Source: Raja brachyura (lineage: Eukaryota). Taken from it: DNA of 64,000 nt. The stretch lies in assembly GCA_963514005.1 (NCBI GenBank), contig OY740804.1, positions 4,898,001 to 4,962,000 on the forward strand. Direction: 5' to 3'. Positions 1,962-62,284 of the stretch are shown piece by piece. The first letter of the stretch is position 1; every line of letters starts with the position of its first letter. Below the pieces are notes generated by a model. It was not told where the DNA came from. It did not search any database and saw only the letters and a program-made list of their open reading frames with translations. A program made the translations under genes and the position numbers.

Positions 1962-2270
1962 AACCCGTGACTGTTCCTGTGCTTGGATTTTTGTCACCAG
2001 CCAATGTCTCCGGTGTCGGAGGCACAGTGACAGTGTCGTGTAAGTCTGAGCGGGGATCACTTCCCATTAGCTACACCTGGTATGAAAATACCTTAAAGAT
2101 CTCAAATAGCAATAACCTGGATCTACGTTGTCAATCCTTCAAACAACAAAGCCATCAATATTACTGCAAAGCCTCAAATAATCGTGGGACAAGGACCAGT
2201 GAAATGGTCAACGTGGCAGTGCCCAACGTCGGAGCGAATTGCAGTTATGCGGTGCATTTCGGTAACAGTG
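1962..2270 (+). CDS. Gene A IgC2 exon (FcR-like/FCRL-type domain)
   Basis: Acceptor cccacag|, donor G|gtaagt, 309 nt, phase 1-1. EPVTVPVL...VTVSCKSERGSLPISYTWY...YYCKASN. Confidence 0.9.
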
Positions 2271-3129: not shown

Positions 3130-3627
3130 AACTCCACCATTTTGCATCTTTTTGCTGATATTTTCTTGTTCCCTGTTGCTCCTCAGCTCCAAATCATAAC
3201 TATTATCCAGCATGTTCAGTCCCTTTCTAACTACTGCATTCATAAGATCCACCCGTAATAACATTGCCCCATCCCTCCAGTAGGTATCTGATCCACTGGA
3301 CTAGATCTCCCTGTACTGGCAAGGCCAGCTATCTGGTCAGAACATCCCCTTGCATTTGTCAGGGCTAAACAGGCTTTGCATTCCCACCAACCCAAGCCCT
3401 TTAAGTGTCCCAGCAGCATCTCAACATCTCTAGAGCTCAAATATGGGACGGAAAGAGAAATTATCAATAAATGTGATCAACAGTTAAGTGTTGGCAGCAG
3501 CAGGAACTTTTTTACACAAAGGGTGGTGGGTGTATGGAACACGCTGCCAGAGGAGGTGGTTGAGGCAGGTACTATTGTAATATTTAAGGAACATTTAGAC
3601 AGGTACATTGATAGGATAGGTTTAGAG

Positions 3628-6135
3628 GTCCAACAAGGCGAATTTAGGGAGCTAGGAGATAAACTTAAAAGTAGGACCTCAAAGGTAATAATCTCTGGAT
3701 TACTGCCAGTGCCACGTGCTAGTCAGAGTAGAAATAGGAGGATATGGCAGATGAATACGTGGCTTGAAAAATGATGCAAGGCGGAGGGATTCAAATTTCT
3801 CGGGCATTGGAACCAGTTCTGGAGGAGGTGGGACCAGCATAAACGGGATGGTCTGCACCTGGGATGGAATGGAATCAATGTCCTTGGGGGAGTGTTTGCT
3901 AGTGCTGTCAGGGAGGATTTAAACTAATGTGGCGGGGGATGGGAGCATGAGCAGAGAGACAGAGGGATGTAAGATGAGGGTAGAAGCAATAGGTAGCAAG
4001 GTGAAAAGTAAACGTAGCAGGCAGAAAAATCCAGGGCAAAAATCAAAAAGGGCCACTTTTCAACATAATTGTATAAGGGGTAAGAGCGTTGTAAAAACAA
4101 GCCTGAAGGCTTTGTGTCTCAATGCAAGGAGCATTCGTAATAAGGTGGATGAGTTGAATGTGCAGATAGTTATTAATGAATATGATATAGTTGGGATCAC
4201 GGAGACATGGCTCCAGGGTGACCAAGGCTGGGAGCTGAACATCCAGGGATATTCAATATTTAGGAGGGATAGACAGAAAGGAAAAGGAGGTGGAGTAGCA
4301 TTGCTGGTTAGAGAGGTGATTAACGCAATAGAAATGAAGGACATTAGCATGGAGGATGTGGAATCGATATGGGTAGAGCTGTGAAACACTAAGGGGCAGA
4401 AAACTCTGGTGGGTGTTGTGTACAGGTTACCTAACAGTAGTAGTGGAGCTGAGGATGGCATCAAACATGAAATTAGAAATGCATGCAACAAAGGTAAAAC
4501 AATTATAATGGGTGACTTCAATCTACATATAGATTGGGTGAATCAAATTGGCAGGGGTGCTGAGGAAGAGGATTTCTTGGAATGTATGCGGGATAGTTTT
4601 CTAAACCAACAAAAAGAACCAACGAGAGAGCAGGCTATTCTAGACTGGGTATTAAGTAATGAGGAAGGGTTAGTTAGCAGTCTTGTTGTGTGTGGCCCCT
4701 TGGGCAAGAGTGACCATTATATGGTTGAGTTCTTCATTAGGATGGAGAGTGACATTGTTAATTCAGAAACAAGGGTTCTGAACTTAAAGAAAGGTAACTT
4801 TGAGGGTATGAGACGTGAATTGGCTAAGATAGACTGGCAAGTGATTCTTAAAGGGTTGACGGTGGATATGCAATGGAAGGCATTTAAAGACTGCATGGAT
4901 GAGCTACAACAATTGTTCATCCCAGTTTGGCAAAATAATAAATCAGGGAAGGTAGTGCATCTGTGGATAACAAGGGAAATCAGGGATAGTATAAAAACAA
5001 AAGATGTGGCATACAAATTAGCCAGAAAAAGCAGCCTACCAGAGGACTGGGAGAAATTCAGAATCCAGCAAAGAGTAGGAGTAAACTGGTCATTTTCAGA
5101 ATGGCAGGCAGTGATTAGTGGGGTACAGCAAGGCTCAGTGCTGGGACACCGGCTATTTACAATATATATTGATCTGGATGAGGGAATTGAATGCAAAATC
5201 TCCAAGTTTGCGGATGACACAAAGCTGGTTGGCAGTGTTAGCTGTGAGGAGGATGCTAGGAGGCTGCAAGGTGACTAGGATAGGTTGGGTGAGTGGGAAA
5301 ATGCATGGCAGATGCAGTATAATGTGGATAAATGTGAGGTTATCCACTTGGGTGGCAAAACCAGGAAAGTAGACTATTATCTGAATAGTGGCCGATTAGG
5401 AAAAGGGAAAATGCAAAGCGACCTGGGTGTCATGGTACACCAGTCGTTGAAAGTAGGCATGCAGGTGCAGCAGGCAGTGAAGAAAGCGAATGGTATGTTG
5501 GCATTCATAGCAAAAGGATTTGAGTACAAGAGCAGGGAGGTTCTACTGCAGTTGGACAGGGTCTTGGTGAGGCCACACCTGGAGTATTGCGTACAGTTTT
5601 GGTCTCCTAATCTGAGGAAAGACATTCTTGCCACAGAGGGAGTACAGAGAAGGTTCACCAGACTGTTACGTGGGATGGCAAGACTTCCATATGAAGAAAG
5701 ACTGGATAGACTCGGCTTGTAGTCGCTGGAATTTAGAAGATTGAGGGGGGATCTTATAGAGACTTACAAAGTTCTTAAGGGGTTTGACAGGCTAGATGCA
5801 GGAAGATTGTTCCTGATGTTGGGGAAGTCCAGAACAAGGGGTTACGGTTTAAGGATAAGGGGGAAGTCTTTTAGGACCGAGATTAGAAAATCATTTTTCA
5901 CACTGAGTGGTGAATCTGTGGAATTCTCTGTCACAGAAGGTAATTGAGGTCAGCTCATTGGCTATATTTAAGAGGGGGTTCAATGTGGCCCTTGTGGTTA
6001 AAGGGATCAGGGGGTATGGAGAGAAGGCAGGTACAGGATACTGAGTTGGATGATCAGCCATGATCATATTGAATGGCGGTGCAGGCTCGAAGGACCGAAT
6101 GGCCTACTCATGCACCTATTTTCTATGTTTCTATG
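3628..6135 (+). mobile_element. CR1 LINE, degenerate and internally deleted, in a gene A intron
   Basis: ORF1 esterase end (DGLHL), APE endonuclease (NARSIRNK, ITETWL, MGDFN, SDH), jump to the RT C-terminus (FADDTK), TTCTATGT tail. Stops and frameshifts present. Confidence 0.92.
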
Positions 6136-6754
6136 GTGAGCCCGATATCTGAGGAAGGATGTGCTGGTTCTGGAGAGGGTCCAGAGGAGGTTTACAAGAA
6201 TGATCCCAGGAATGAGTGGGTTAACATATGATGAGTGTTTGACAGCACTGGGCCTGTACTCGCTGGAGTTTAGAAGGATGAGGGAGGCCCTCATTGAACT
6301 TTACTGAATATGGAAAGGCCTGGATAGAGTTGATGTGGAGAAGATGTTTCCACTAGTGGGGTAATCTAGGGCCAGAGGTCATAGCCTCCGAATTAAAGAG
6401 CGTTTCTTTAGGAAGGAATTCTTAAGTAAGAGGGTAGTAAATCTGAGGAATTTATTGCCACAGAAGGTTGTGGAGGCCAAGTCAATGGATATTTTAAGGC
6501 GGAGATAGTACGGGAGTCAGGGGTTATGAGCAGAAGGCAGGAGAATAGGGTTAGGAGGGAGAGATAGATCAGCCGTGATTGAATGACGGAGTAGACTTGA
6601 TGGGCCGAATGGCCTAATTCTAATCCTATCACTTATGAACATGAACTGATGAAGTCGATGTGCCAAATGGCCTAATTCTGCTCCTATGACTTCTGCACTT
6701 ATGATTGCAAGTGAAAAGCAGGTGATGTTGAATTGTATTTCCTTGACCCAACAG

Positions 6755-6875
6755 AACCTGAAAAGACTGGTAGCACTTCTAAGCATGAACCAATGATGAC
6801 TACACCGTTTGCAAGTACAGAAAAAAAATCCAATGATAATCAAAATGACACCACCCGATCCACTTGCACGGAATG
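6755..6875 (+). CDS. Gene A Ser/Thr-rich stalk exon
   Basis: Acceptor ccaacag|, weak donor TG|gtacaa, phase 1-2, which fits both neighbours. EPEKTGSTSKHEPMMTTPFASTEKKSNDNQNDTTRSTCTE. Confidence 0.72.
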
Positions 6876-7997
6876 GTACAATAATGTTATTACTGCTGTT
6901 GTGATTGGCTCTGCTTCCTTCTGAGAATAAATTGGAAGAGAATTTCCTCTTTCATTGGCTAGTTAAGTGCCTCAGAGTATTGACTTCAATCTATTCAAAT
7001 GTTGAGATCGGAGTGCGCACAAGAATTGAAAGGAATGATCTAAGATCCAGCATGCACTCAATGGGCCAAATGGACTCTAGCTTTTTTTTGGTTTTTAGTT
7101 TTAGAGAAACAGCACGGACACAGGCCCTTCCACCCTACAAGTCCATGACAGCCTTAGATCAGTCTGAAGAAGTGTCTCAACACGAAAAACGTCATCTGGT
7201 CCTTCTCTCCAGAGGTGCTGTGTGACCCGCTGAGTTACTCCAGCTTTTTGTGTCGATCTTCGATCCCCCCGTTAACACTAGTTCTATGTTGTACCACTTT
7301 ATTGTTCAATCCCTACACATTCAGGATTGAACCCAGGTCTCTGGCGCCTTAAGAGAGCTGCTCTATCAAATGTGCCAATGTAATGAAAAGAAGATGAGAA
7401 AGTAATTGTTGATTCATCTCTTGATTTTGTACACCTCCATAAGATCACCCCTCGTCCTCCTGCTCTCCAAGGAATAATGACCTAGCTTGCTCAACCTTTC
7501 CCTATAGCTCAGGCCCTCGAGTCCCAGCACCATCTTCGTAAATCTTCTCTGCACCCTTTCCAGCTTGACAAAATCTTTCCTATAACATGGTGACCAGAAA
7601 TGCACACAATACCCTAAATGTGATGAGGTTCCAGGATTATGCAGAATTACATCTGGTCACATAGGATTGAAGGCACAGAAAAGATCAACTAGGCTGGTCC
7701 ATGCTGGTGTTTACAGACCACTCGTCACTTCTCCCATCTTTTCCTATCTAACTTTATCAACGCTAGACACAAAATGCTGGAGTAACTCAGCGAGTCAGGC
7801 AGCATCTCTGAAGAACATGGATAGGTGAGGTTTTGGGTCGAGATCCTGGACGGTGGAATTTCCCAGCTGAACTCGCTGGGCTCTGTTGCTGTACCCTGCT
7901 CCATGTAGAGATTTCACAGCAATCAGGATATGAATGTTTCCAACACAAACTAGTCTGTTTTCTCCCACTGATTCTGTATCTTTCCCCCTTTGCTCAG

Positions 7998-8088
7998 TTC
8001 CATGACATGGAAGGTGGGACGCTGGCTGTACTTTGCTCTGCTTGGGATCTGCAGTATCTCAGTCTCATTGTTCACAAGTATAAGGAAG
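7998..8088 (+). CDS. Gene A transmembrane exon with TM arginine
   Basis: Polypyrimidine tract plus gctcag|, donor AAG|gtatgt, phase 2-0. SMTWKVGRWLYFALLGICSISVSLFTSIRK. Confidence 0.85.
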
Positions 8089-8848
8089 GTATGTTTTGCA
8101 GAGATCATCAGAATCGCTGACTGCTTCCAAATGATGTCCATTAATACTTTCAAACATGCTGATAAAATAAAACAAACGGAAAGTGTTTAGATAAAGTATT
8201 TCACAAATTCGGGCCAAACCAATGCTCTACGAAAAAGATATCAATAGGCCTTGACAAGATGTTTGTGTGCTTGATGTAGATGTTGTACAGTCATTGAAGC
8301 AGAGAGAAATACAGCATGGAAACAGGCCCTTTGGCCCACTGTAACCATGCAGGCCATCTTATCTGACCCCCAGTTTCCTCCCCTCTATTTTCAGTTTGAA
8401 GAAGGGTCCCGACCTGAAATGTCACCCATCCTTTTTCCCCAAAGATCTTGCCTGACTCGCTGAGTTACTCCAGCACTTTGTGTCTATCAGGCCATTGATC
8501 ACCCGTACGCATTAGTTCTGTGTTATCCCATTCTCACGTCCCAAATCCCAACACACTCGGGGAAATTCACATTGGCCAAGTAACCTGTAAACCCGCAAGT
8601 CTTTGGGATGTGGGAGGAAACCAGAGCTCGCGGAGAAAACCCACATGGCCACAGCGAGAACATGCAAACTCCACACAGATAGCACCAAAGTCAAAATCCA
8701 AGCAAATTCTTGGAAGCTGTGAGGCAGCAGCTCTATCAGTTGCATCACTGTGCCAATTGGAAGCAGAATTCTGTTGTGAGTGGCCTTGTGAAATAAAGTA
8801 CAATTCCCTGAGTTAATGAATCTGATGACTTCAACATTTTTTTTACAG

Positions 8849-8884
8849 GGACCCAATGAACCGAAACCTCACAGCTTGCCGTAG
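8849..8884 (+). CDS. Gene A terminal exon, short cytoplasmic tail
   Basis: Acceptor ttttttttacag|, phase 0, GPNEPKPHSLP-TAG. No tyrosine motif. Confidence 0.75.
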   Translation, partial: GPNEPKPHSLP

Positions 8885-11608
8885 AAGGCAGAATGAAGAT
8901 CCACTGGTGATAGTGACTGAGAAACTACTCTCCAATGATCGTTATTATTTTGAATGAATTAATAGAAACATAGAAAATAGCCAGCACCGCCATTCAACAT
9001 GATCATGGCTGATCATCCAACTCAGTATCTTGTTCCTGCCTTCTCTCCATACCCCCTGATCCTTTTAGCCACAAGGCCCACATCTAACTCCCTTTTAAAT
9101 ATAGCCAATTAAGTGGCTTCAATTACCTTCTTTGGCAGAGAATTCCACAGATTCACCACTCTCTGTGTGAAAAAAAAAATTCTCATCTCAGTCCTAAAAG
9201 ACTTCCCCCTTATCCTTAAACTGTGATCCCTTGTTCTGGACTTCCCCAACATCGGGAACAATCTAGCCTGTCCAACCCCTTAAGAATTTTGCAAGTTTCT
9301 ACAAGATCCCCCTCAATCTTCTAAATTCTAGCGAGCACAAGCAATGAATGAATGAATACTTTATTGTCACATTTGACAAATCACAGTGAAATTCTTTGCT
9401 TGCCAACCCAATGTATGCAAATAGTCACCCATAAAGGGTGCTGACAAAGTGTTTTTCATTTTGCTTTCATAATAGACTGCACAGAATTAATGTTTCTTCT
9501 GCTAAAACAATTAACTTAGTTCACACATTATTCAATAGACAATAGGTGCAGGGGTAGGCCCTTCGAGCCAGCACCGTCATTCAATGTGGTCATGGCTGAT
9601 CATCCCCAATCAGTTCCCCGTTCCTGCCTTCATAACTTTTTCCTCGTCCTCCAGGTTCAAGAACAGCTTCTCAGCAGCAACAATTAGGCTTTTGAACACT
9701 GCACACTAACCTCAACTATCAAGTATGGACAGTGTTTGGTTGCACTGAAGACATCAGTTTGTTTTTGTCCTTATTGGACATTAACTAATTCATTTTTGTA
9801 CATTATACATTAACTGTGTGCATTGTGTTTACAAGCACAATGAGGGGAATAGATAGGGTATGTGTTGGAAGGAACTGCAGATGCGTGTTCAAACCGAAGA
9901 TAGACACAAAAACCTAGAGTTACTCATCGGGTCAGGCAGCACCTCTGGAGCAAAGGGATAGGTGATGTTTTGAGCCGAGACCTTTCTTCGGACAGAGGTA
10001 GGGGAAAGGGAAACAAGGGAAACAAGTCTCTTACCCAGAGTATTGGAATCAAGACTCAGGGGGCAAGGCTTCAGGTGAAAGCGAAAAGTTTTAATAGGAT
10101 CCTGAGGGGCATCATTTTTTTACACAGTGAGTTGTGGGAGTATGGAATGAGCTAACTGATGAGGTAGTTGAGGCAGGTGCTACAAAAACACTTTAAAGGC
10201 ATTTGGACAGTTACATGAATAGGACTGGTTTAGAAGGAGATGGACCAAACGCTGGCAGGAGGAACTAGAGTAGATGGGGCATCTTGGTCGACGTTGGCAA
10301 GTTGGGCTGAAGGGTCTGTTTCCATGCTGTATAACTCCATAAATCTCCAGATTCGTTGTGCTACTCAAACAAAGCATTATATTGCCCCCCTGTCGGTACA
10401 TATGACAATCAAGCACTCTTGACGCAGGCGTTTAACAAACCAAAATCAACCAAATGTCCTCGACATGGATTCAGTTCCAGTGCATAAAAAAAGTTATGAG
10501 AAGAATATACCTTGCACTATATCTGTTTTGAGTACTGTTGATATCAATCTTGTAATTGGAGATAGTGTGATTGTCATTGGTTCTTTATAAAAAGATATGT
10601 TATTGTTAATGTTTAATGTTTTAGGTGTCATTCCTAATGTCACTGTATGTCACATTGCACTTGTGGGCGGAGCACCAAGGCAAATTCCTTGTATGTGAAT
10701 ACTTGGCCAATAAACCTATTCATTCATAAACCCATTCATTCATCATTCATTCATAAGATTAGTCAAGTTATATTGAGGCAAGGAAATAAAATTAAGTCTC
10801 AACTGTTTTCACATGCAGTGAATAAAGATAACAAGATTGTCAGATGGAACCCATTGCTTTGAGTAAATGCCAATTAGCTTGAGAGATATGGTGACTATTA
10901 TTCAGTGGAATTGGACGTCTTAGTTGAGTTTAGTTTAGAGACACAGCATGAAACAGGACCTTTGGCCCACCTAGTTCACGCCAATCAGCGATCCCACCCG
11001 CACACCAGCACTATCCTGCACACACTAGGGTCAAATTACAGTTTACCAAAGCCAATTAACCTACAAACCTGCACGTCTTTGGAGTGTGGGAAGAAACCAA
11101 AGATCTCAGAGAAAACCCACTTGGTCATGGGGAGAACATACAAACTCCGTACAGACAGCACCCGTAGTCAGGATCGAACCCGTGTCTCTGGCGCTGAAAT
11201 GAAGGCAGCAACTCCAGCACTGTACACTCGTACACCCTATGTATCATTTATATTTTTGTGTATCTACGTGTATGTGCCTGTGATGTTGCCACAAGCGTGA
11301 TTTTCATTGTACCTGCACCTCACCATACGTGCATATAAGAATAAGCCAGACTTGACTTGAAAACTGCTCAGCAAAGTATATTACAATGATGTTCTCATGA
11401 GAAAAAGTACTTCCAGAACAATTGATCTGATGGGATGTCATAACTTATAGTTTCCCTCTTCTAAATATTCTTCACAGTTAAAACAATGAGGCATTTCCAG
11501 GATTGAATACAATTTATTCCTCATGACTGCAATGTCATGCTACACAACACAAAATAATAAGTCATTGCTATGAATGCTAGCAACATTGATTAAATGGCAC
11601 CTCTACTG

Positions 11609-12127
11609 AGTGAATAGATTCTTGCTATTGAGGGAGTGCAGCTTAGGTTTACAAGGTTAATTCCCGGGATGGTGGGATTGTCATATGCTGAGAGAATGGA
11701 GCAGCTGGGCTTGTACACTCTGGAGTTCAGAAGGATGAGAGGGAATCTCATTAAAACATATAAGATTGTTAAGGGCTTGGACACACTAGAGGCAGAAAAC
11801 ATGTTCCCGATGTTGGGGAACCAGGGGCCACAGTTTAAGAATAAGGAGTAAGCCATTTAGAATGGAGACGAGGAAACACTTTTTCTCACAGAGAGTGGTG
11901 AGTCTGGAATTCTCTGCCTCAGAGGGCGGTGGTGGCAGGTTCTGTGGATGCTGATTCTGTGGATTCTGTGGAAGAGAGAGCTAGATAGGGCTCTTAAAAA
12001 TAATGGAGTCAGGGGATATGGGGAGAAGGCAGGAACGGGGTACTGATTGGGGATGATCAGCCATGATCACATTGAATGGCGGTGCTGGCTTGAAGGGCCT
12101 ACCTCTGCACCTATTGTCTATTGTCTG
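11609..12127 (+). mobile_element. CR1 3' fragment spanning the spacer/right-arm boundary
   Basis: ORF2 C-terminal peptide RFTRLIPGM...LGLYTLEFRRMRG and ATTGTCT tail. Confidence 0.85.
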
Positions 12128-12778
12128 TTGAATAATGAGTGAACTAAGTTAATTGTTTTAGCAGAAGAAACATTAATTCTGCGCAGTCTATTATGAAAGC
12201 AAAATGAAAAACACTTTGTCAGCACCCTTTATGGGTGACTATTTGCATACATTGGGTTGGCAAGCAAAGAATTTCACTGTGACTTGTCAAATGTGACAAT
12301 AAAGTATTCATTCATTCATTGCTTGTGCTTGCTAGAATTTAGAAGACTGAGGGGGGATCTTGTAGAAACTTGCAAAATTCTTAAGGGGTTGGACAGGCTA
12401 GATTGTTCCCGATGTTGGGGAAGTCCAGAACAAGGGGTCACAGTTTAAGGATAAGGGGGAAGTCTTTTAGGACCGAGATGAGAATTTTTTTTTTCACACA
12501 GAGAGTGGTGAATCTGTGGAATTCTCTGCCAAAGAAGGTAGTTGAAGCCACTTCATTGGCTATACTTCAAGGGAGTTAGATGCGGCCTTTGTGGCTAAAC
12601 GGATCAGGGGGTATGGAGAGAAGGCAGGAACAAGATACTGAGTTGGATGATCAGCCATGATCATGTTGAATGGCGGTGCAGGCTATTTTCTATGTTTCTA
12701 TTAATTCATTCAAAATAATAACGATCATTGGAGAGTAGTTTCTCAGTCACTATCACCAGTGGATCTTCATTCTGCCTT

Positions 12779-12814
12779 CTACGGCGAGCTGTGAGGTTTC
12801 GGTTCATTGGGTCC
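12779..12814 (-). CDS. Gene B terminal exon, short cytoplasmic tail
   Basis: Mirror of 8849-8884. GPNEPKPHSSP-TAG. Confidence 0.72.
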   Translation of the reverse strand, partial: GPNEPKPHSSP

Positions 12815-13574
12815 CTGTAAAAAAAATGTTGAAGTCATCAGATTCATTAACTCAGGGAATTGTACTTTATTTCACAAGGCCACTCACAACAGAATTCTGC
12901 TTCCAATTGGCACAGTGATGCAACTGATAGAGCTGCTGCCTCACAGTGTCCAAGAATTTGCTTGGATTTTGACTTTGGTGCTATCTGTGTGGAGTTTGCA
13001 TGTTCTCGCTGTGGCCATGTGGGTTTCCTCCGCGAGCTCCGGTTTCCTCCCACATCCCAAAGACTTGCGGGTTTACAGGTTACTTGGCCAATGTGAATTT
13101 CCCCGAGTGTGTTGGGATTTGGGACGAGAGAATGGGACAACACAGAACTAATGCGTACAGGTGATCAATGGCCTGATAGACACAAAGTGCTGGAGTAACT
13201 CAGCGAGTCAGGCAAGATCTTTGGGGAAAAAGGATGGGTGACATTTCAGGTCGGGACCCTTCTTCAAACTGAAAATAGAGGGGAGGAAACTGGAGGTCAG
13301 ATAAGATGGCCTGCAGGGTCGCAGTGGGCCAAAGGGCCTGTTTTCATGCTGTATTTCTCTCTGCTTCAATGACTGTACAACATCTACATCAAGCACACAA
13401 ACATCTTGTCAAGACCTATTGATATCTTTTTCGTAGAGCATTGGTTTGGCCCGAATTTGTGAAATACATTATCTAAACACTTTCCGTTTGTTTTATATTA
13501 TCAGCATGTTTGAAAGTATTAATGGACATCATTTGGAAGCAGTCAGCGATTCTGATAATCTCTGCAAAACATAC

Positions 13575-13665
13575 CTTCCTTGTACTTGTGAACAATGAGA
13601 CTGAGATACTGCAGATCCCAAGCAGAGCGAAGTACAGCCAGCATCCCACCTTCCATGTCATGGAA
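13575..13665 (-). CDS. Gene B transmembrane exon (Arg replaced by Cys)
   Basis: Mirror of 7998-8088 with intact splice sites. SMTWKVGCWLYFALLGICSISVSLFTSTRK. Confidence 0.82.
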
Positions 13666-14778: not shown

Positions 14779-14899
14779 CATTCCGTGCAAGTGGATCGGG
14801 TGGTGTCATTTTGATTATCATTGGATTTTTTTTCTGTACTTGCAAACGGTGTAGTCATCATTGGTTCATTCTTAGAAGTGCAACCAGTCTTTTCAGGTT
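14779..14899 (-). CDS. Gene B stalk exon
   Basis: Mirror of 6755-6875. EPEKTGCTSKNEPMMTTPFASTEKKSNDNQNDTTRSTCTE. Confidence 0.7.
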
Positions 14900-15517: not shown

Positions 15518-18030
15518 CATAGAAACATAGAAAATAGGTGCATGAGTAGGCCATTCGGTCCTTCGAGCCTGCACCGCCATTCAATATGATCATGGCTGAT
15601 CATCCAACTCAGTATCCTGTACCTGCCTTCTCTCCATACCCCCTGATCCCTTTAGCCACAAGGGCCATATTGAACTCCCTCTTAAATATAGCCAATGAAC
15701 TGGCCTCAACTACCTTCTGTGGCAGAGAATTCCACAGATTCACCACTCTGTGTGAAAAATGATTTTCTCATCTCGGTCCTAAAAGACTTCTCCCTTATCC
15801 TTAAACTGTAACCCCTTGTTCTGGACTTCCCCAACATTAGGAACAATCTTTCTGCATCTAGCCTGTCGAACCCCTTAAGAATTTTGTAAGTCTCTATAAG
15901 ATCCCCCCTCAATCTTCTAAATTCCAGCGAGTACAAGCCAAGTCTATCCAATCTTTCTTCATATGGAAGTCTTGCCATCCCAGGTATCAGTCTGGTGAAC
16001 CTTCTCTGTACTCTGTGGCAAGAACGTCTTTCCTCAGATTAGGAGACCAAAACTGTACGCAATCCTCCAGGTGTGGCCTCACCAAGACCCTGTCCATCTG
16101 CAGTAGAACCTCCCTGCTCTCTAGTACTCAAATCCTTTTGCTATGAATGCCAACATACCATTCGCTTTCTTCACTGCCTGCTGCACCTGCATGCCTACTT
16201 TCAACGATTGGTGTACCATGACACCCAGGTCGCCTTGCATTTCCCCTTTTCCTAATCGGCCGCCAATCAGATAATAGTCTACTTTCCTGTTTTTGCCACC
16301 CAAGTGGATAACCTCACATTCATCCACATTATACTGCATCTGCCATGCATTTGCCCACTCACCCAACCTATCCTAGTCACCTTGCAGCCTCCTAGCATCC
16401 TCCTCACAGCTAACACGGCCAACCAGCTTTGTGTCATCCGCAAACTTGGAGATTTTGCATTCAATTCCCTCATCTAGATCATTAATATATATTGTAAATA
16501 GCTGGGGCCCCAGCACAGAGCCTTGAGGTACCCCACTAATCACAGCCTGCCATTCTGAAAATGACCCGTTTACTCCTATTCTTTGCTGGATTCTGAATTT
16601 CTCCCAGTCCTCTGGTAGGCTGCTTTTTCTGGCTAATTTGTATGCTTCATCTTTTGTTTTGATACTATCCCTGATTTCCCTTGTTATCCACAGATGCACT
16701 ACCTTCCCTGATTTATTATTTTACCAAACTGGGATGAACAATTGTTGTAGCTCATCCATGCAGTCTTTAAATGCCTTCCATTGCATATCCACTGTCAACC
16801 CTTTAAGAATCACTTGCCAGTCTATCTTAGCCAATTCACGTCTCATACCCTCAAAGTTACCTTTCTTTAAGTTCAGAACCCTTGTTTCTGAATTAACAAT
16901 GTCACTCTCCATCCTAATGAAGAACTCAACCATATAATGGTCACTCTTGCCCAAGGGGCCACGCACAACAAGACTGCTAACTAACCCTTCCTCATTACTC
17001 AATACCCAGTCTAGAATAGCCTGCTCTATCGTTGGTTCCTCTAAATGTTGGTTTAGAAAACTATCCCGCATACATTCCAAGAAATCCTCTTCCTCAGCAC
17101 CCCTGCCAATTTGATTCACCCAATCTATATGTAGATTGAAGTCACCCATTATAATTGTTTTACCTTTGTTGCATGCATTTCTAATTTCATGTTTGATGCC
17201 ATCCCCAGCTCCACTACTACTGTTAGGTAGCCTGTACACAACTCCCACTAGCGTTTTCTGCCCCTTAGTGTTTCGCAGCTCTACCCATATCGATTCCACA
17301 TCCTCCATGCTAATGTCCTTCCTTTCTATTGCGTTAATCACCTCTCTAACCAGCAATGCTACTCCACCTCCTTTTCCTTTCTGTCTATCCCCCCTGAATA
17401 TTGAATATCCCTGGATGTGCAGTTCCCAGCCTTGGTCACCCTGGAGCCATGTCTCCGTGATCCCAACTATATCATATTCATTAATAACTATCTGCACATT
17501 CAACTCATCCACCTTATTACGAATGCTCCTTGCATTGAGACACAAAGCCTTCAGGCTTGTTTTTACAACACTCTTACCCCTTATACAATTATGTTGAAAA
17601 GTGGCCCTTTTTGATTTTTGCCCTGGATTTTTCTGCCTGCTATGTTTACTTTTCACCTTGCTACCTATTGCTTCTACCCTCATCTTACATCCCTCTGTCT
17701 CTCTGCTCATGCTCCCATCCCCCTGCCACATTAGTTTAAATCCTCCCTGACAGCACTAGCAAACACTCCCCCAAGGACATTGATTCCATTCCATCCCAGG
17801 TGCAGACCGTCCTGTTTGTGCTGGTCCCACCTCCTCCAGAACTGGTTCCAATGCCCGAGAAATTTGAATCCCTCCGCCTTGCATCATTTTTCAAGCCTCG
17901 TATTCATCTGCCATATCCTCCTATTTCTACTCTGACTAGCACGTGGCACTGGTAGTAATCCAGAGATGTTTACCTTTGAGGTCCTACTTTTAAGTTTATC
18001 TCCTAGCTCCCTAAATTCGCCTTGTTGGAC
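15518..18030 (-). mobile_element. CR1 LINE, mirror copy in a gene B intron
   Basis: Same internal deletion as 3628-6135. Endonuclease ORF 16721..17731 is open for 336 aa. Confidence 0.92.
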
Positions 18031-21992: not shown

Positions 21993-22301
21993 CACTGTTA
22001 CCTAAATGCACCGCATAACTGCAAGTCGCTCCGGTGTTGGGCACTATCACGGTGACCATTTCACTGGTCTTTGTCCCACGATTATTTGAGGCTTTGCAGT
22101 AATATTGATGGCTTTGTTGTTTGAAGGATTGACAACGTAGATCCAGGTTATTGCTATTTGAGATCTTTAAGGTATTTTCATACCAGGTGTAGCTAATAGG
22201 AAGTGATCCCCGCTCAGACTTACACGACACTGTCACTTTGCCTCCGTCACAGGAGACATTGGCTGGTGACAAAAATCCAAGCACAGGAACAGACACGGGT
22301 T
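21993..22301 (-). CDS. Gene B IgC2 exon (FcR-like domain)
   Basis: 309 nt, AG/GT intact, open frame. EPVSVPVL...SCDGGKVTVSCKSERGSLPISYTWY...YYCKASN. Confidence 0.88.
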
Positions 22302-23686: not shown

Positions 23687-24001
23687 CGTCAGATACTTGG
23701 AGATGTACGTTAAACAATGGATCCTTGCCAGGTGCAGCAATTCCACAACTGTACCACCCTGTATCTCCAGAGCGAAGATCCTCCACAGTCACAGTAAATA
23801 TTCCTCGTGTCCGGTTATCTGTGATTGACACTCTTCCACTCCGTCCATGTTCCCCATTTGTTTTCACTAAAACTCTACAATGTTCAGTCCACCCGTGACA
23901 CCAGTATTTTGGGCGTGAGCGGTACTCTGCTTCATAGTGACAATCGACTGTGACCGCTCTTCCCACAACTCCTCCTACACGGACCTTCCCCCACACCGCA
24001 T
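23687..24001 (-). CDS. Gene B IgV exon, CD300/pIgR-like
   Basis: 315 nt, AG/GT intact, open frame. KYWCHGWTEHC...DTGWYSC. No convincing leader exon was found upstream. Confidence 0.9.
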
Positions 24002-25029
24002 CTGAAACTGAGAGGAAACATCTTGTGAAAATGAACAGGAAGAATCAGGTGAACATTCGGAATGATCAGGGGTGCGCTGGACAACATTCATCCCCCCACC
24101 AACACTGGACCAGATCATCCATCACTGCATGGACTTGCCCTCGTTCCAATTAGAAGCGTCTCTGCCATCTCCAACCCAGTGGTAGGGAACAACATCTCAT
24201 ATTTCCCGTCGGCAGATTACACCCCAATGGTATGAATATTGATATCTCTAACTTCAAGTAAACCTTGCATCCCCTCTCTGTCCATCCCTCTCCCACCCAA
24301 GTTGAACCAGCTTCTTGTTGAATCTCATTGCCTGTAACTAGTTCTCACTTACTACACAGCTAGCAATGGCCTGTTTCCTTTATCATTGTTACTTTTTTTT
24401 ACATATCTTTAATTCATTTGTTCTATATCTCTCTACACAACCATCTATACATCTTCCATTTTCCCCGACTCTCAGTCTGTAGAAGGGCCTAGATCTCGAA
24501 ATGGCACCTATTCCTGAGCTCCATAGATGCTGCTGAGTTACTCCAGTATTTTGTGTCTATCTTCCAAACGGACATTGTCTCTTCTGTCCCCTCAGCATTG
24601 CCGGCGTTTCTGTTGCTTGTCACGCTGCTGGGAGCGGCATCTCCCGGTCCTTGTGTCGGCTGGTGGCTTCCCAGATCTAGCAGTTGTGAATGGAAGGAGA
24701 CCGCAGAGTACAATATTCGGTAAATTACCTCACTTCAGCTACCAACTAAATGGGTCGCTTTAATGACCGAGTGAAAAATACGTCCAGGAAAATATATGGG
24801 ATTCTGTATAGTGATCCCCTCTCACTCACAATCAGTATCACAACAGCTTCAGGATTAAGGTTGGGCCTTGCTGAATTAGACAAAAACACAACAGAAGGCA
24901 AAACAAAATGAAAAGTAAATGGTTACTTATTGCGAGAACGCTGTTGACCAACACTCTAGCCACGAGGATTAGAGAACTAAAAAAATAAACGGCTAAATTG
25001 TTGTCAATTTGAGAATTTTAAGCGTAACG

Positions 25030-26132: not shown

Positions 26133-26291
26133 NNNNNNNNNNNNNNNNNNNNNNNNNNNNNNNNNNNNNNNNNNNNNNNNNNNNNNNNNNNNNNNNNNNN
26201 NNNNNNNNNNNNNNNNNNNNNNNNNNNNNNNNNNNNNNNNNNNNNNNNNNNNNNNNNNNNNNNNNNNNNNNNNNNNNNNNNNNNNNNNNNN
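26133..26291. other. Assembly gap
   Basis: Run of N. Confidence 0.99.
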
Positions 26292-26924
26292 CAGTGAGAA
26301 CTGAAGTGCAGTAACTAGATCTATAACCAATTATAGGGGTGCGTTTGCGCTTTGATGTTACTTCAACTAGCGCGGGAGTGCGGCGACATTTCGGGTGATG
26401 GTCCAAGGAGGGACGACTAATTTAGGCAACTAAAGAACAGCGTTCGCTCCACCCACTCCCCCCTCCCCCCCCCCCATCTTCCCTGTGCCCCCACCCCACC
26501 ACCCTGCACTCCCAACTGGATACATAGAAACATAGGCGCAGGAGTAGGCCATTTGGCCCTTCGAGCCAGCACCGCCATTCAATATGATCATGGCAGATCA
26601 TCTAAAATCAGTATCCCCGTTCCAGCTTTTCCCCCCATATCCCTTGATTCCGTTAGCCTTTCGAGCTCTTGAAAACAACCACTGCCTTCTGTGACAGAGA
26701 ATTCCACAGATTCACAACTCTCTGGGTCAAAAAGTTTTTCCTGATCTCAGACCTAAACGGTCTAACGATGCATATCGGTTTCTCCCAGTAAGTACTTAAC
26801 ACAGTGTTTGCTGGCCCACCAACTCTTCCCCTAACCAACGATGGGCCGAATGGTCAAACCTGTGTCTGGTACCCTTGAGCTGTCATTGACACTCTTCCAC
26901 TCCGTCCATGTTGACCATTTGTTT

Positions 26925-27222
26925 GGGCAGTCACGATGGCGCAGCGGTAGAGTTGCTGAATTACAGCGAATGCAGCGCCAGAGACCCGGGTTTGATCCCG
27001 ATTACAGGTGCTGTCTGTACGGAGTTTGTACGTTCTCCCCGTGACCTGCGTGGGTTTTCTCACAGATCTTCGGTTTCCTCCCACATTCCAAAGACGTACA
27101 AGTTTGTAGGTTAATTGGCTTGGTAAATGTAAAAATTGTCCATAGTGGGTGTAGGATGGTGTTAATGTGCGGGGATCGCTGGTTGGCATGGACACAGTGG
27201 GCCGAAGGGCCTGTTTCGTGCT
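26925..27222 (+). mobile_element. tRNA-derived HE1/V-SINE-like SINE (representative). Further approximate copies at 8500-8750, 10915-11215, 12910-13160, 30620-30850, 42672-42950, 45090-45310, 46395-46657, 51364-51650, 53045-53245, 54420-54695, 58230-58475, 59430-59750
   Basis: A-box TGGCGCAGCGG, B-box-like GGTTyGATCC, conserved core GGTTTCCTCCCACA.TCCAAAGACGT, CR1-like tail GGGCCGAAGGGCCTGTTTC. Confidence 0.85.
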
Positions 27223-29750
27223 GGGTGGAAGAAAGCAAGCGGCGGAGACAGTGGGCTGTGGGAGAGTTGGGAAGGGGAGGGGAAAGAGGGAGATAGCGGG
27301 GACTACCTGATATTGGAGAAGTCAATGTTCATATTGCTGAGGTGTAAACCGCCCAAATGGAGGTGGGCTCCTCCAACCTTCGGAGATGTCATCATTCTTT
27401 TGGGAACGGGGGTTCCCCTATTCTACTATAGATGAGGCTCACGCCAGGGTCTCTTCTATATGTAACTCTGCCCTCACTCCCCATCCCCTCACTCATAACA
27501 AGGGCAGAGTCCCCCTTGTCCTCACCTTCCACCCGACCAGCCGTCACATACACCATATAATCCTCCGACATTTTCACCACCTCCAATGGGATCCCACCAC
27601 CGGCCACATCTTCCCATCTCCTCCCCTTTCGGTTTTCCACAGAGACCATTCCATCCATAACTCCCTGGTCAATTCGTCCCTTCCCAACCAAACCACCCCC
27701 TCCTTTGGTACTTTCCCTTGCAACTGCAGGAAATTCTACACTTGTCGCTTTATCTCCCCACTTGACTCCATCCAAGGACCTAAGCAGTCTTTCCAGATGC
27801 AGCAGAGGTTCACCTGCACTTCCTCCAATCTCATCCATTGCATCCGCTGCTCTCTGTGTCAGCTGCTCTACGTTGGCGAGACCAAGCGCAGGCTTGGCGA
27901 TCGCTTCACCCAACACCTCTGCTCGGTTCGCAATAACCAACCTGATCTCCCGGTGGATCAGCACTTCAACTCCCCCTCTCATTACGAATCTGATCTTTCT
28001 TTCCGGGGCCTCCTCCATGGCCAGAGTGAGGCCCACCGTAAATTGGAGAAGCAGCACCTCATATTTTGCTTGGGTGGTTTACACCCCAGCGGTATGAACA
28101 TTGACCTCCAATTTCATGTAGTCCCTGCTTTCTCCCTCCTTCCCCTCCCCTCCCAGCTCTCCCACAGTCCACTGTCTCCTCCTCTACCTTTCATGTTCCC
28201 GTCCCCCCGCCCCCACATCAGTGTGAAGCAAAGATTATAGAGGAGCAAGATGCGCCACTCAGTGGAAATCCAATGGACTGGTGTGTAGTACGTAACGGAA
28301 CGTCACAGCCGCCATTTTGGCAGACTGCCTCCCCCTGTGTAATTCGCTCCAAAGCTACAGAGCAGTTGCAAACAAAGATTATAGAGGAGCAAGATGCATT
28401 AGAAAGTTATTAGATTTATTTGTAATAGATCTTTACTTACCTCTCGATCCCTCTCTCCCCTCTCTTCTCGCTATCCCTCTCTCTCCCCTCTCTTCTCTCG
28501 ATCCCTCCCTCGCCCTCTCTTCTCTCGATCTTTCTTTCCCTCTCTCGATCTCTCTCTCCCTTTCTTCCCTCTCTCCCCTCTCTTCTCTCGATCTCTCTCT
28601 CCCCTCTCTATCTTTCTCTCCCTCTCTTTTCTCGATCTCCCTCTCCCCTCTCTTTTCTCTCTCTCTCTCTCTCTTCTCTCTCCCTCTCTCCCCCCTCTCT
28701 TCTCTCGATCCCTCTCTCCTCTCAATCCCTCTCTCCCCTCTCGATCCCTCTCTCTCCCCTCTCGATCCCTCTCTCTCCCCTCTTCTCTCGATCTCTCTCT
28801 CCCCTATCTTCTCTCGATCTCTCTCCCCTCTCGATCTCCCTCCCTCCCCTCTTCCCCTCCCTCCTTCCCTCTCTCTCCCTCCCTTCCCTCTCCCCCTCCC
28901 TTTTCCCCCTGTTCCCCCATTTCCCTCGCATCTTTCCTCCCCAGCCCCCACCTTTGCGTAGTTTTCCTTGCATTGTATTGTGCAGCTTCCCTTGTATTGC
29001 TTTAACACACACTGTGCACAAAATTACAGGCACACACAAACACACATTAATATAAATATATGGTGGGACAGATAGAAGAGATTATTAACATCTTCTTACA
29101 AAGACCATTATGTAATTTATTTCTATCCTCTTTTGGGCCTAAGGCATAGCAGGGCTGTCAACTCTCACACAGAGGGAAGGGAGGGAGAGAGGGAAATCGA
29201 GAAGAGAGGGGAGAGAGATAGATCGAGAGGGGAGAGAGAGCGATCAAGAGGGGAGAGAGAGCGATAGAGAGAAGAGAGGGTGATTGAGAGAAGAGAGGGA
29301 GATAGCGAGAAGAGAGGGAGATAGCGAGAAGAGAGGGGATAGAGAGGGATCGAGAGGTAAGTAAAGATCTATTACAAATAAATCTAATAACTTTCTAATG
29401 CATCTTGCTCCTCTATAATCTTTGCTTGCAACTGCTCTGTAGCTTTGGAGCGGATTACACAGTGGGAGATCGAGGGACAAAGATTATAGAGAAGCCTAGT
29501 TTCCCAATGATGTAGATGCCATAGTCGACGCGATGTCTGGTCCGCTAATATGGCGTCGACAATCACACATGTGATACTACGCCTTTTCCACTGAGTGGCG
29601 CATCTTGCTCCTCTATAATCTTTGGTGTGAAGAAGGGTCTCGACCCGAAACATCGCCTATTTCCTTCAATCCATGGATGCTGCCTCACCCGCTGAGTTTC
29701 TCCAGCATTTTTGTGTACCTTTGATTTTCCAGCATCTGTAGTTCCTTCTT
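27223..29750 (+). mobile_element. Penelope-like element 3' half (GIY-YIG endonuclease) with an inverted upstream repeat
   Basis: ORF 27386..28240: VPLVLTFHP...FTCTSSNLIHCIRC...YVGETKRRLGDRF...HFN. 27223-27380 is an inverted copy of its 3' region. The pseudo-LTR resumes at 29625. Confidence 0.9.
28229..29624. mobile_element. Non-autonomous foldback DNA transposon (P-element/Galileo-like or hAT)
   Basis: Perfect 40-bp TIRs CAAAGATTATAGAGGAGCAAGATGCGCCACTCAGTGGAAA (28229-28268 and 29585-29624). 8-bp TSD GTGTGAAG (28221-28228 and 29625-29632). Internal inverted arms with CT/GA tandem repeats. Confidence 0.88.
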
Positions 29751-31734
29751 AAACTAAAACTGTACACTGGTGACTCCTCCTAGTACACCAGTATTTTGTG
29801 TGTGAGCGCTACTCATCTCCAAAATGACAATCGATTGTGATCGCTCTTCCCATAAATCCTATAGCGTATTGCTTTGCTTACAGTGCACCTGAATCTGAGA
29901 GGAAAATGTAGAGGACAAATCTACTTATCACAGTGTTTGCTGGCCCACCCTGTCTTGCCCAAACCAACGATGGGCCGAATGATCCAACCTGTGACTGGAC
30001 ATTCACTTACCCTTGAGCCAAACACAAAGGCCCGGTGTAACTCAGCGACTTTGGAGGCCTTGCGTGAACGCTGGTCGCCGCGGGAGGTCGAATGTAATAC
30101 TGATGAAGATGACGTTATTTTAAAATTGATGGCTGTTATTTTGTAAAATGCCACAAGGGCAGTTTTAATCGTGTTACTTTTTTTTGTAGTTTTGTTTTGT
30201 TTCTGAAGTATTTGTATTTTTTAAAAAAAAGTGTAACTCAGCAGATCAGGCAGCGTCTGTGGAGGGAATGGGCAGGTGACATTTTGGGTCAAGAACTTTA
30301 TCCAGGGAAACTTTAGTAGGAAGGGGAAAGCTGGCAGAGAGGGGTGGTGGTGGGGTGGTGAGGGGGGGGGGGGCGTGGGGGAGGGGAAGCCTCCTTGGTC
30401 ATCCACCAATTTGATCTCCCTCTCCATACATGGCCCTTTTCAGCCCTCGTTCCGCAATGATTTTAGTCTGAAGTGCAGTCATTGCCATTGTTGGACCAGT
30501 CATGTCTGTACTCTCCCCACCCAGGTGAGTAAATTCTAGGGTTACTTTCCACTCCAGAGATCTAGGATGAATCCGTGGGTCACCCTCCACTGCTTTGAAG
30601 AACTGACTTTACACTTCACTTTCAAGATACAGCGTGGAAACAGGATCTTCTGTCCACCAAGTCCACACTAACTAGTGATCTCCGTACACTAGCACTATCC
30701 CACTACACATACTAAGGCCAATGTACATTTTTAGCAAAGTCAATTAACCTACAAACCTGCACGTCTTTGGAGTGTGGGAGGAAATCGGAGCACGCGGGGA
30801 ACATGGTCACAGGGAGAACGTACGAACTCCGTTCAGACAGCACCTGTAGTCTTGGATAGAGACTACAGTGCATTGAGACAGCATATGTAAGAAAGGCCTA
30901 TGACAGTGTCAAAAATATTATACACCTTGCAGGGCTCTCACTTCATGTTTTTTCTCTATAGTCTTGGCAGCTTTTACGTTGCCAAATTACAGTTCAGGTG
31001 GTCGTTTAAGACGGCTTCTCCAGCATTTTTGTCAACCCATTCACACAACTTCTGTTATCCCACTTGCCTCACCCACTCCCTACACATTCAGGGCAATTTT
31101 ACAGAGACAAGTTATAATCTTTGGGATGTGGGAGGAAACCCACACGCTTGCAGGGAGAATGTGCAAATTCAACACAGGCATTGCCCGAGGACAGGATCAA
31201 ACACAGATCTCTGGCGTGTGAGGCAGCAAGTCTACCAGCTGTGCCACTATCTTTTGTTTTCCAACACACAAAAAATTATACGTTGATAACTTTTGTTACT
31301 AAAAAAAAGAAAATATCAATTTTCAGTTTTAAATCTCCAAGTGACGCTCTGTCCCCCTTTACAGCTACTGTATGTTTTAATTAAGTTCAAGACTATGGGG
31401 CAGTACATTGGCCATTAAGTTGCTGCCTAAAAGTGCCAGAGACCGGAATTGATCCTGAATATGGGTGCTGTCGGCATGGAGTTTGCTCCTTTTCCTGTTT
31501 GATCACATGGTTTTCTCCGGGTGCTCTTGCTTCCTTCCACATTCCAGAGGTGTGCAGGAACCTATTTCAGACTAAACCCAAAACGTAATATTTTCCGTTT
31601 GTCAAGAGATTCTGTCTGACCTATTGAGTTACTCCAGCTTTTTGTGTCTATCTTCAGTTTAAACCAGCATCTGCAGTTCCTTCCTACACACACGATGCTA
31701 TACGACAGAACTTTATTAATCCCAGTACGGAAAT

Positions 31735-32507: not shown

Positions 32508-35500
32508 TGTAAATAAGCAATTTACAAACTCTAAAAGTGTTCAACACATTTTAATGATAGCTCAAGGTATTACATACATCCTCAAATACTGGCTACATTC
32601 TTCTAGTGAACCGTATCCAGGAAGGGGAAGGCGTTATGATTGATGTTAACTAGGCGGGGTTAATGGTACTGAGGTAACTATGTTATTGGTTGCATGCAAA
32701 ACCATCTACATCCTTCCCCTTAGAAAATTTAAAAGAAACAGACCGTTGTCACTACAACAGAATTAAACAGAATTAAACAGAATCGCCATAACGAACAGGT
32801 GGCTTGCTGATCCGGCCCGAGCGCGTACGGATGCCTCCCCCTTCCCCCGGAGGAGCAGAAAAAACAGGGGGACCCGAGGCAGCAGGGGAACCAGGGAAGG
32901 GCGGTGGGGTTGGAGGAACAGGAGAGGGAGAACCGCGACCGCCAACAGGTGACCCGCGCAGAGGGGAACCGGGCGCTCGATATGGGGACCGAGGCATGCA
33001 GGGAACGCTGGCTGGGACAGGAGCCGGCTGCTGGTATGAGAGCGGCGGGGCATAGGGGCCCGGGGCCTGCGGCTTCGGCTCATTAACCGCAAGCAGGTGT
33101 TGTCGGCTTCTACGGTAGATGGTTCCCTCATAGTCGACCAGATACGAACGAGGTGAGTCGGCCACCCCAACCACAGTAGCCAGACGGGAGTGACCACTGG
33201 CGGTTTGCAATCGAACAACCTGTCCAGGCAACAGAGGATCGAGCGGTCTGCACGACCGATCGTGGGAACGCCGCTGGCTGTCATGTTTCTCTTGAATGCG
33301 CCTCTGCACAGAGGCAGGCTCCAGCACCCGAGGTTTCAGCTGGCGCTGGGCAATCGGGATGGTAGATCTGGTTGTTCTGGACATCAGACGCTGAGCAGGG
33401 GACCCCATGGCCGGATCTCTGGAAACATTCCTGAGGTTCAGGAGATCCAAATACAAATCAGAGTTAGACAGTCTCGCTTGTTCCATCAGAAGCTTGGCGC
33501 TGCGGACGGCCCGTTCAGCAAGGCCGTTGCTCTGTGGGTACTCCGGGCTGCTGGTGAAATGCACAAAATTCCATTTGTCAGCAAAACTTTTGAACTCACG
33601 GCTGGTAAACTGCCTGCCATTGTCAGTCTGCAGCCTGACAGGGGACCCAAACGTGGAGAAATGTTTCCGCAGCTTCCGGATCACCATCTCCGACGTGAGG
33701 GATGTCAGCAAATCCACCTCGAACCAGTTTGAGTACGAGTCGACCAGGACAAGGTAGTGGTTACCACGCCACTCGAAGATGTCGGCAGCCAGCGAGGACC
33801 AGGCCAAGGCAGGAGCGGGCTGTTGCAGCAGGGGCTGTCGCTGCTGATGTGGAGCAAGACTGTTGCACGTGGAGCAGGCAGAAACACGGTCTCGAATATA
33901 TTTGGCCATTCCAGGCCAGTAGAATTGGCACTGAGCGTGGGCGAGTGTTGCATCGACCCCGGGGTGTCCGCTGTGGGCTGCGCAGTAGTAAGAATCGAAC
34001 AGGGAGGACGGGACCACCACTTTATGTCCCTTAACGATAACGCCATTCTGGAGCACCAGTTCGTCACGGACCAGGAAGAAGGGCTGTGTTTCAGGCGGTG
34101 CAGGGGAGCGCTTTGTTGGCCACCCTGATTTAATCACAGACGCAAGCCGTTGCAAAACTGGATCGGCAGTGGTGTGCTCGGCCAAAAGCTGCAGCTGCTT
34201 GGTGGGAATAAAATTGACGCCCAGTACGAGCAAGTCCTCTGTTTCGTAGGGGTGGCGAGCACAGGAGGCCCGCGGGGCGCGCGATAACGTGTCCACGATG
34301 TGCATCTCGGTGCCTTTCTTGTAGACGATGTCGAAATCAAAGCGCTGGAGCTGCAGCATCATACGCTGCAGCCTGGCAGGGGCAGCATGAATCGGCTTGT
34401 TCAGGATTGTCACCAGTGGCTGGTGGTCGGTTTCGACTGTAAATCTGCTGCCAAACAGGAAGTCTCTGAACTTGGAGCAGGCAAACACCACCGCAAGCAG
34501 CTCCTTCTCGATCTGAGCGTACCGCTGCTCGGTGTCCGTCATGGTGCGGGAGGCATAGGAGACAGGATGTAACGATCCATCGACAGATTGGAGGCATGCC
34601 GCGCCCAGGCCGAACTTAGAAGCGTCACATGTGACGGTGATGGGGCGACTTGCATCAAAAAATCGCAACGTCGGAGTGTTAATCAGTTTCGACTTGAGAC
34701 AGTAAAACGCCTGCTGGTGCTGTGGGAGCCAGACCCAGGCGATATCCTTTTTTGTCAGCTGCCGCAGGGGAGCACTCAGCTCACTGAGATGTGGTACAAA
34801 CTTCCCAAGGTAGTTCACCATGCCCAAGAAACGTTGTAGACCTGGCACGTCGGTGGGGGCTGCCATCTCAGAGATGGCTGCTGCCTTCAAAGGGTAGGGT
34901 TTTAGTCCGTTAGAGGTGAAAACGTGTCCAACATACGTGACTTCTGAGACACGAAACCGGCACTTCTTTGGGTTCAGCTTCAGGTTGGCCTTTCGCGCCC
35001 GATCCAGGACGCGGCGGAGGTTCCGGTCATGTTCGGCAATGTCCTTTCCATAGACTAAGATGTCATCCACGATGATGGCACATGGCAGGCCCGAGAATAT
35101 CTGCTCCATCGTTCGCTGGAACACCTCACTAGCGGAATTGATGCCGAATGGCATTCGCAGGAATTTGAATCTGCCGAATGGTGTGGCGAAGGTTGTCAGG
35201 TCGGAAGATGCTTTGTCCAACGGGATCTGCCAGAACGAGTTCTTAGCGTCTAGGACCGAAAAGACGGTGGCTTGCCCGACCTGAGCCGCCACATCCTCAA
35301 CAGACCGCATGGGGTAGTGTGGTCGCCTGATGGCAAGGTTTAAGTCCTTGGGGTTGATACACACACGTATTTCATTCTTGTCTTTCTTTATCGTGGCAAC
35401 CATGGTGGAGACCCAATCGGTGGGCTCGCTGACCGCTTCTAGCACCCCCTTGTCGACCATGTTGTTAAGCATCGCCTCGACCCTGTCTTTCATGGCGTGG

Positions 35501-48211: not shown

Positions 48212-48523
48212 CTGTGAAAACATCTAGCATGACAATATCTGAAACAAGGATTCCATTTGTCTGAATTTTTCCACACCAGTATGTTCCTGTATCATTCTTC
48301 TGAAGTTGACTTGTTACAAAAACAGACCCATTGAGGCTTCTCATTGATATCCTTCCACTACGGTCCTCGTCTTGCTCAGTGTTGACTATTACTTGACACT
48401 TCCCTCGAGAATTGACTTTGCACCAGCTGACATGTCCTGTTTTCTGAGCGTTTGGACATTCTATAGTCACTTTTTCTCCCTCGCCAGCTCTTATCACCAT
48501 CAAGTGAAGCTTTGCTAAGGAAC
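48212..48523 (-). CDS. Gene D IgV exon 1 (CD300/pIgR-like)
   Basis: Acceptor ccaacag|, donor G|gtaaga, 312 nt, phase 1-1. GEKVTIEC...WC-x7-C...DTGTYWCG. Confidence 0.88.
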
Positions 48524-48618
48524 CTGTTGGGTGAAATATAATGCTGGTAATTTTACAGAATCACTTCAAAATATTCCCATAACCCCCCCCCCCCCCCCCC
48601 CCGGACATAATCTCATGT

Positions 48619-62280: not shown

Positions 62281-62284
62281 TTTT

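Follow-up and report, generated by a model that had tools for sequence, protein, structure and literature searches.

The receptors closest to those considered here form the MDIR family, of which Cannon 2006 is reportedly the defining paper. MDIRs are described as a multigene family with activating and inhibitory members, related to CD300, TREM and pIgR (PMC3031540). In mammals, receptors that join the Fc-gamma adaptor through a basic residue carry an Arg in the N-terminal part of their transmembrane helix, and partners of DAP12 a central Lys; replacing Arg by Lys sharply reduces the assembly of FcalphaRI with Fc-gamma (PMC1440944). The FcalphaRI residue R209 is the partner of gamma-chain D11 (PMC7801909), and NKp46 and NKp30 have an Arg that serves with CD3-zeta or FcR-gamma (PMC6514059). 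The motif NxxR is a signature of receptors of the leukocyte receptor complex and of XFL receptors (PMC2413239). Here we analyse a 64,000-nucleotide stretch of the skate Raja brachyura (GenBank assembly GCA_963514005.1, contig OY740804.1, positions 4,898,001 to 4,962,000 of the forward strand), hereafter the window, whose numbering is used throughout. It carries two MDIR-type genes, A and B. The transmembrane Arg is present in A and has become Cys in B, and we lean towards reading B as a signalling-dead young duplicate under relaxed constraint, possibly decaying.

Genes A (+) and B (-), two skate receptor genes of MDIR (CD300/pIgR-like) type, form a young inverted duplicate. Exon models of both genes, guided by the Amblyraja radiata protein P0082 (81% identical to A and 78% to B), share the same layout of five exons, namely a V domain, a C2 domain, a stalk, the transmembrane segment (TM) and a short Tyr-free tail. 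Both models have AG/GT exon ends, no internal stop and an open frame of 291 residues (leader excluded), with immunoglobulin (Ig) exons in phase 1 and a stalk exon ending in phase 2; the leader exon of A is expected to the left of the window. Among 145 candidates, a search with the V exon of A found 102 relatives, every named one from a shark, ray or skate. Its V domain is 80% identical to clearnose-skate MDIR2 and 69% identical to both MDIR3 and MDIR5, and its best matches in the PDB are pIgR domain 1 and CLM-1/CD300f. Judged from their sequences, A and B are members of the MDIR family, with a V-set domain of the CD300/pIgR/TREM group and, ahead of the TM, modular V and C2 exons. Querying with the stalk, TM and tail of P0082 returned only two proteins among three candidates and added nothing. 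The two genes are 94-97% identical across the duplicated blocks, and no N occurs in the stretch that separates them (the N gaps of the window lie at 25345-25508, 26133-26291 and 62484-62612). The duplication and the two genes comprise the following features:

3164-9631, pairing with 18504-12025: core of the inverted duplication, 97.0% identity, 2.4 kb of spacer between the arms
1632-2511, pairing with 22626-21756: outer duplication block, 95.6% identity
1-1454, pairing with 24076-22623: outer duplication block, 94.2% identity
70..390, +: gene A, V-set Ig exon of MDIR/CD300/pIgR type (Pfam V-set, E 1.8e-11; 80% to skate MDIR2; splice ends)
1962..2270, +: gene A, C2-type Ig exon (Pfam Ig_3/Ig_2; 82% to P0082; AG/GT ends)
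6755..6875, +: gene A, stalk exon with phase 2 end and membrane-proximal cysteines (tblastn to P0082 and P0111; splice ends)
7998..8088, +: gene A, TM exon, WKVGRW... (AG/GT ends)
8020..8022, +: gene A, Arg codon CGC, outer end of TM helix (TGG AAG GTG GGA CGC TGG = WKVGRW)
8849..8884, +: gene A, Tyr-free tail exon of 11 codons plus stop
12779..12814, -: gene B, tail exon, without Tyr, one derived Leu-to-Ser change
13575..13665, -: gene B, TM exon, WKVGCW..., with a further derived change, Ile to Thr
13641..13643, -: gene B, Cys codon TGC (GCA on +) in WKVGCW, a CpG-type transition of the conserved Arg
14779..14899, -: gene B, stalk exon, one Cys more than A
21993..22301, -: gene B, C2-type Ig exon (Pfam)
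23687..24007, -: gene B, V-set Ig exon (Pfam), differing from A at 18 amino acids

The original prediction for this locus had named the CGC and TGC codons, and had described both tails as short and without Tyr. Its reading frame proved correct (stalk phase 2, AG/GT ends of the TM exons), and the tail-exon models agree with its account of the tails. The Arg of A stands at the start of the best hydrophobic segment of 21-23 residues and lies at the edge of the hydrophobic stretch, and after its replacement by Cys no charged residue is left in the corresponding stretch of B. Arg had further been taken as probably ancestral on the ground that gene D, farther along the window, keeps W-x3-R-W. Gene D does keep it (WGVLRW, CGC at 44050-44048), but as a distant relative it was set aside as proof, and closer relatives were used instead. 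The W-x4-W motif is present in the TM of 35 of the 102 relatives, all 35 of which have the Arg (27 distinct segments). In the final census, Arg occupies this position in 52 of 52 profile-aligned TM segments, drawn from 51 of 117 proteins and amounting to 39 distinct cores, P0082 and P0111, the two closest named relatives, included. No replacement, even by Lys, is seen in this column, while adjoining columns vary. On this comparison Arg is the ancestral state, and the argument is stronger than the one from gene D.

Searching with a TM profile brought in further relatives, with 45 of 8000 candidates scored and, in addition, 20 hits; the census omits six of these 20, all unnamed (two repetitive, four weak). 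Rows with Arg made up most of the profile, and word-seeded searches may miss relatives. When the profile was rebuilt without A and B, the TM exon of B still scored 50.8 bits, against 56.5 bits for that of A. Arg-less relatives are thus detectable by the profile step, and the 52/52 count is no artefact of it. ITIM-type tails (immunoreceptor tyrosine-based inhibitory motif) without the W-x4-W motif were found in 29 other proteins of the 117. An Arg motif accompanying short tails, set against ITIM tails without the motif, is what paired receptors usually show.

The claim that the change is a CpG-type transition also held, and the same change is common across the non-coding CpG sites of the two copies: 39 of 169 such aligned sites read CG in one copy and TG or CA in the other, the CpG having been lost 24 times in B and 15 times in A. 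Non-CpG non-coding sites differ by 1.8-3.2% between the copies, and non-coding sites overall by 2.3-4.3%. A neutral CGC codon in B would have had about a one-in-seven chance of losing its Arg through either CpG transition. As a mutation, the replacement of Arg by Cys is ordinary and not beyond chance. The unusual and informative part is its toleration at a column that otherwise shows no variation among sharks, rays and skates.

That A is an activating receptor, as had been proposed, is borne out as a matter of anatomy: its Arg is N-terminal in the TM, its tail is short and lacks Tyr and an ITIM, and relatives of ITIM type exist in the family. B lacks the basic residue. By analogy, the partner that we best infer for A would be of the FcR-gamma/CD3-zeta type, because its Arg lies at the helix's outer edge. 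Sharks have CD3-zeta. In the explanation that we favour, the N-terminal Arg of A would dock onto the acidic pair of a dimer of this type carrying ITAMs (immunoreceptor tyrosine-based activation motifs). Deamination at the CpG of the CGC codon would have produced the Cys of B, which very probably could then not recruit the adaptor and, with its Tyr-free tail, would have no signalling route. The loss would have been tolerated because constraint on the signalling end of B, a gene redundant with A, is presumably relaxed. B may in addition be poorly expressed, if at all, or heading towards a pseudogene.

The pattern of differences between the copies is consistent with this explanation at the signalling end. 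A and B differ at 33 amino acids, 16 of them derived in B, 7 derived in A and 10 unpolarised, with P0082 as the reference. In the TM and tail, B has the derived state at all three differences, a polarity that P0111 shares for both that lie in the TM. The rate of replacement in stalk, TM and tail is close to that of non-coding DNA (roughly 5 in 180 sites versus 145 in 6205, p = 0.62, on small numbers).

The region upstream of B holds the other part of the argument, and three features matter here:

26881..29894, -: MDIR V exon in broken form (stop codons in its 5' piece, 29894-29750; middle piece 26934-26881; repeats between)
32508..37221, -: intact Gypsy-type long terminal repeat (LTR) retrotransposon, identical 204-bp LTRs, 5-bp target duplication GAATA
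40878..40974, -: orphan leader exon of a different CD300-like (CMRF35-like) receptor type (33/33 residues equal the start of P0112; donor CAG/GTAAAT)

No MDIR-type leader was found upstream of B in the sequenced bases of the minus strand between 24008 and 64000, where the best score was 11.9, while 34 distinct real leaders scored 18.8-43.5 in a leave-one-out benchmark. A 43-sequence leader profile and half profiles (9 longer leaders) found no MDIR-type leader upstream of B either. The window's best-scoring leader hit (16, at 25178 on the + strand) lies on the strand opposite to B and lacks a donor. A generic scan for an ATG, a hydrophobic stretch and a GT gave three candidates, at 52616, 40974 and 26124, the last of which was rejected for its weak donor and its place beside an N gap. 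The candidate at 40974 is the orphan leader; its phase-1 donor is strong, and it is followed by no V, stalk or TM of the type to which it belongs. The Gypsy element, with one 1419-codon open frame for reverse transcriptase, RNase H and integrase, lies on the strand of B, between B and its only strong leader candidate; its identical LTRs and target duplication indicate a recent insertion. B thus resembles a fading copy more than a receptor of a new kind, given that no leader of its own was found in the sequenced bases, that a broken V exon and a fresh Gypsy element lie upstream, and that the TM and tail differences are all derived in B. Its expression may therefore be doubtful, a point that the original prediction had missed.

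Two further observations concern the surroundings of the V exons. Inspected by eye, the sequence that follows the second piece of the broken V exon resembles that preceding the first (26800-29990, -), which hints at duplication and deletion on a local scale. In the intron before the V exon of A, an in-frame ATG (21-90, +) opens a Phe-rich hydrophobic stretch, and the matching stretch in B (23987-24056, -) is closed by a CGA-to-TGA difference. Since none of 114 relatives starts so, this ATG was rejected as a leader for A and regarded as a side effect of the pyrimidine tract.

Several findings weigh against the reading of B as a signalling-dead copy. Its five exons contain no stop, frameshift or broken splice site, and every Ig-domain cysteine is kept. 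The 16:7 bias of derived changes towards B is not significant (p = 0.093). Two of the N gaps (25345-25508 and 26133-26291, about 160 N each), each adjoining low-complexity sequence on at least one side, could hide a leader. The orphan leader is in frame with the V exon of B, 16.9 kb away, and splicing the two would give an open product of 324 residues. A survey of 2014 reported FcR-gamma to be absent from shark genomes (PMC4016189). Finally, 28 of 321 bases differ in the V exon, compared with 48 of 1128 in its flanks (p = 0.003), an excess that, counted per base, is the pattern expected from selection on a working receptor. This V exon, together with the open frame, speaks for the main rival explanation, under which B would be expressed as a decoy or ligand sink uncoupled from the adaptor: it would bind ligand through a diverged V domain, reach the surface unaided by an adaptor, and dampen A or capture a pathogen ligand, the loss of Arg having been selected. 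At the differing V positions, residues rare in the family number 7 in B and 2 in A (5 versus 4 at the differing C2 positions, the divergence test for the C2 exon giving p = 0.087), and several of those in the V domain of B fall in stretches aligned with parts of pIgR domain 1 that we take to be loop regions. An expressed B could act as a decoy because some receptors of the Arg type can reach the surface without their adaptor, FcalphaR, OSCAR and XFL1.7 having been reported to do so without FcR-gamma (PMC2413239; an account of adaptor-free FcalphaRI was sought in excerpts of two reviews and not found there). The excess in the V exon vanishes, however, when clustered changes are counted once (15 versus 38 events, p = 0.31), and the rare residues are equally compatible with drift. 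Nor was a leader exon of its own found for B, and no other Arg-less member occurs among the 52 segments, so that a receptor of this kind is not a recurring design of the family. The V-exon pattern would fit either selection on the ligand face of B or drift plus a few multi-base events, and we hold the decoy to be possible, if doubtful. The clustered V-exon differences between A and B lie at 93-97 (5 of 5 bases) and 192-197 (4 of 6 bases; A coordinates, +), suggesting micro-conversion or complex mutation. A bolder version, in which B is an expressed chimera with the borrowed orphan leader, a ligand face reshaped by selection and an adaptor-free decoy function gained through one CpG transition, is unlikely; if true, it would add a third, non-signalling MDIR class, just born beside its activating twin.

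The remaining alternatives bear on the meaning of the codon itself. Were the Arg a membrane-interface anchor, or pairing independent of it, B would signal like A, and the position of the residue at the hydrophobic edge, flanked by conserved Trp residues, would fit such a role. The NxxR signature is absent in A and B, which have Lys three residues before the Arg position (Asn is found there in 2 of 35 relatives), and some receptors pair with Fc-gamma without any basic residue (PMC1440944). The missing shark FcR-gamma of the 2014 survey points the same way; a literature search that covered few subscription papers found no later statement on it, a single paper that treats MDIRs, and none on MDIR TM variants or an MDIR adaptor. 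We nevertheless consider both versions quite unlikely, as the Arg is never replaced in the 52 segments, even by Lys, in keeping with the strict preference of Fc-gamma partners for Arg (PMC1440944), and the motif accompanies short tails and is lacking from the 29 ITIM-tailed proteins. A sequencing or assembly error at the T, or an A/B pair that is not a set of fixed paralogues but reflects two haplotypes or a private allele, might be suspected for a single base in a draft assembly with three N gaps. This is very unlikely, since the copies are 2.3-4.3% apart at non-coding sites with a strong CpG signature, carry different insertions and are inverted around a unique spacer with no N between them, and since the change is of the commonest true mutation type. 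The least probable explanation is that, through its Cys, B has gained a new disulfide-linked or acylated form that serves a function of its own. B does have 14 Cys versus 11 in A, the extra ones lying at model positions 124, 216 and 258, the last at the outer membrane boundary. However, A already has stalk Cys 247 and 250 and TM Cys 268, and P0111 has three stalk Cys, so that disulfide linkage would be no novelty of B; Cys124 is a common family residue, present in 37% of C2 segments, and a C-to-T change in CGC simply yields Cys. As to the three fates originally proposed for B, the leader that was not found, the upstream damage and the derived changes lean towards relaxed constraint or an incipient pseudogene; the decoy is less likely, and the disulfide-linked variant is the weakest.

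The rest of the window includes a further receptor gene:

42538-52616, -: gene D (leader 52616-52580; V exons 48523-48212 and 46306-45992; 40-base stalk, TM and tail; all open)
43983..44090, -: gene D, TM exon, WGVLRW, Arg codon CGC at 44050-44048

The TM of gene D shares 88-95% identity with the TMs of P0112-P0114, and the tail of gene D matches P0112 and P0113. Its V domains, in contrast, share only some 30% identity with those of these proteins, which suggests a module swap. Its second V domain is closest to pIgR chains in the PDB, and an atlas search returned only general V-set clusters. Many fragments of long interspersed nuclear elements with reverse-transcriptase-like frames are spread across 3900-5700, 16000-17800, 49183-50988 (a 602-codon reverse transcriptase frame) and 60600-64000. 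At 43234-43485 there is a transposase-like helix-turn-helix fragment, and at 60000-64000 an AT-rich element (27% G+C).

If B is a decaying copy, the locus illustrates routine birth-and-death turnover of activating receptors and is of little import in itself. If B is instead expressed from a borrowed leader, it would catch a modular receptor cluster in the act of swapping leaders and forming decoys. A and B are also a natural matched pair for probing MDIR signalling, three TM and tail residues apart, one of them the invariant Arg. The pair bears on which ITAM adaptor is used by the CD300-like receptors of cartilaginous fish, from which FcR-gamma was once reported absent.

Among described MDIRs, clearnose-skate MDIR5 (P0054) shares with A the WKVGRW start of the TM and a short Tyr-free tail, and MDIR2 (P0078) has the closest named V domain (80%). 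Compared with these two, A and B have one V domain, one C2 domain and a Cys-bearing stalk like that of P0082, and B, unlike every other relative in the census, lacks the TM Arg. The known receptors of the Arg type that pair with FcR-gamma or CD3-zeta (FcalphaRI, GPVI, OSCAR, LILRA2, NKp46 and the XFL TM1 forms) belong to another Ig family than the CD300/pIgR-type V domain of A and B, and A has a W-x3-R-W frame and not NxxR. In Xenopus XFL, TM1 and tail form one exon (PMC2413239), whereas the tail of A and B is on a separate exon. In the chicken CHIR cluster, 41 of 103 loci are pseudogenes, some of them arising from incomplete duplication, and the activating TMs carry Arg, Lys or His (PMC1458963); no precedent for an Arg-to-Cys change was found in the excerpts of the CHIR literature. 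With that cluster the present locus shares block duplication, variable ectodomains and the presence of truncated and probably decaying copies.

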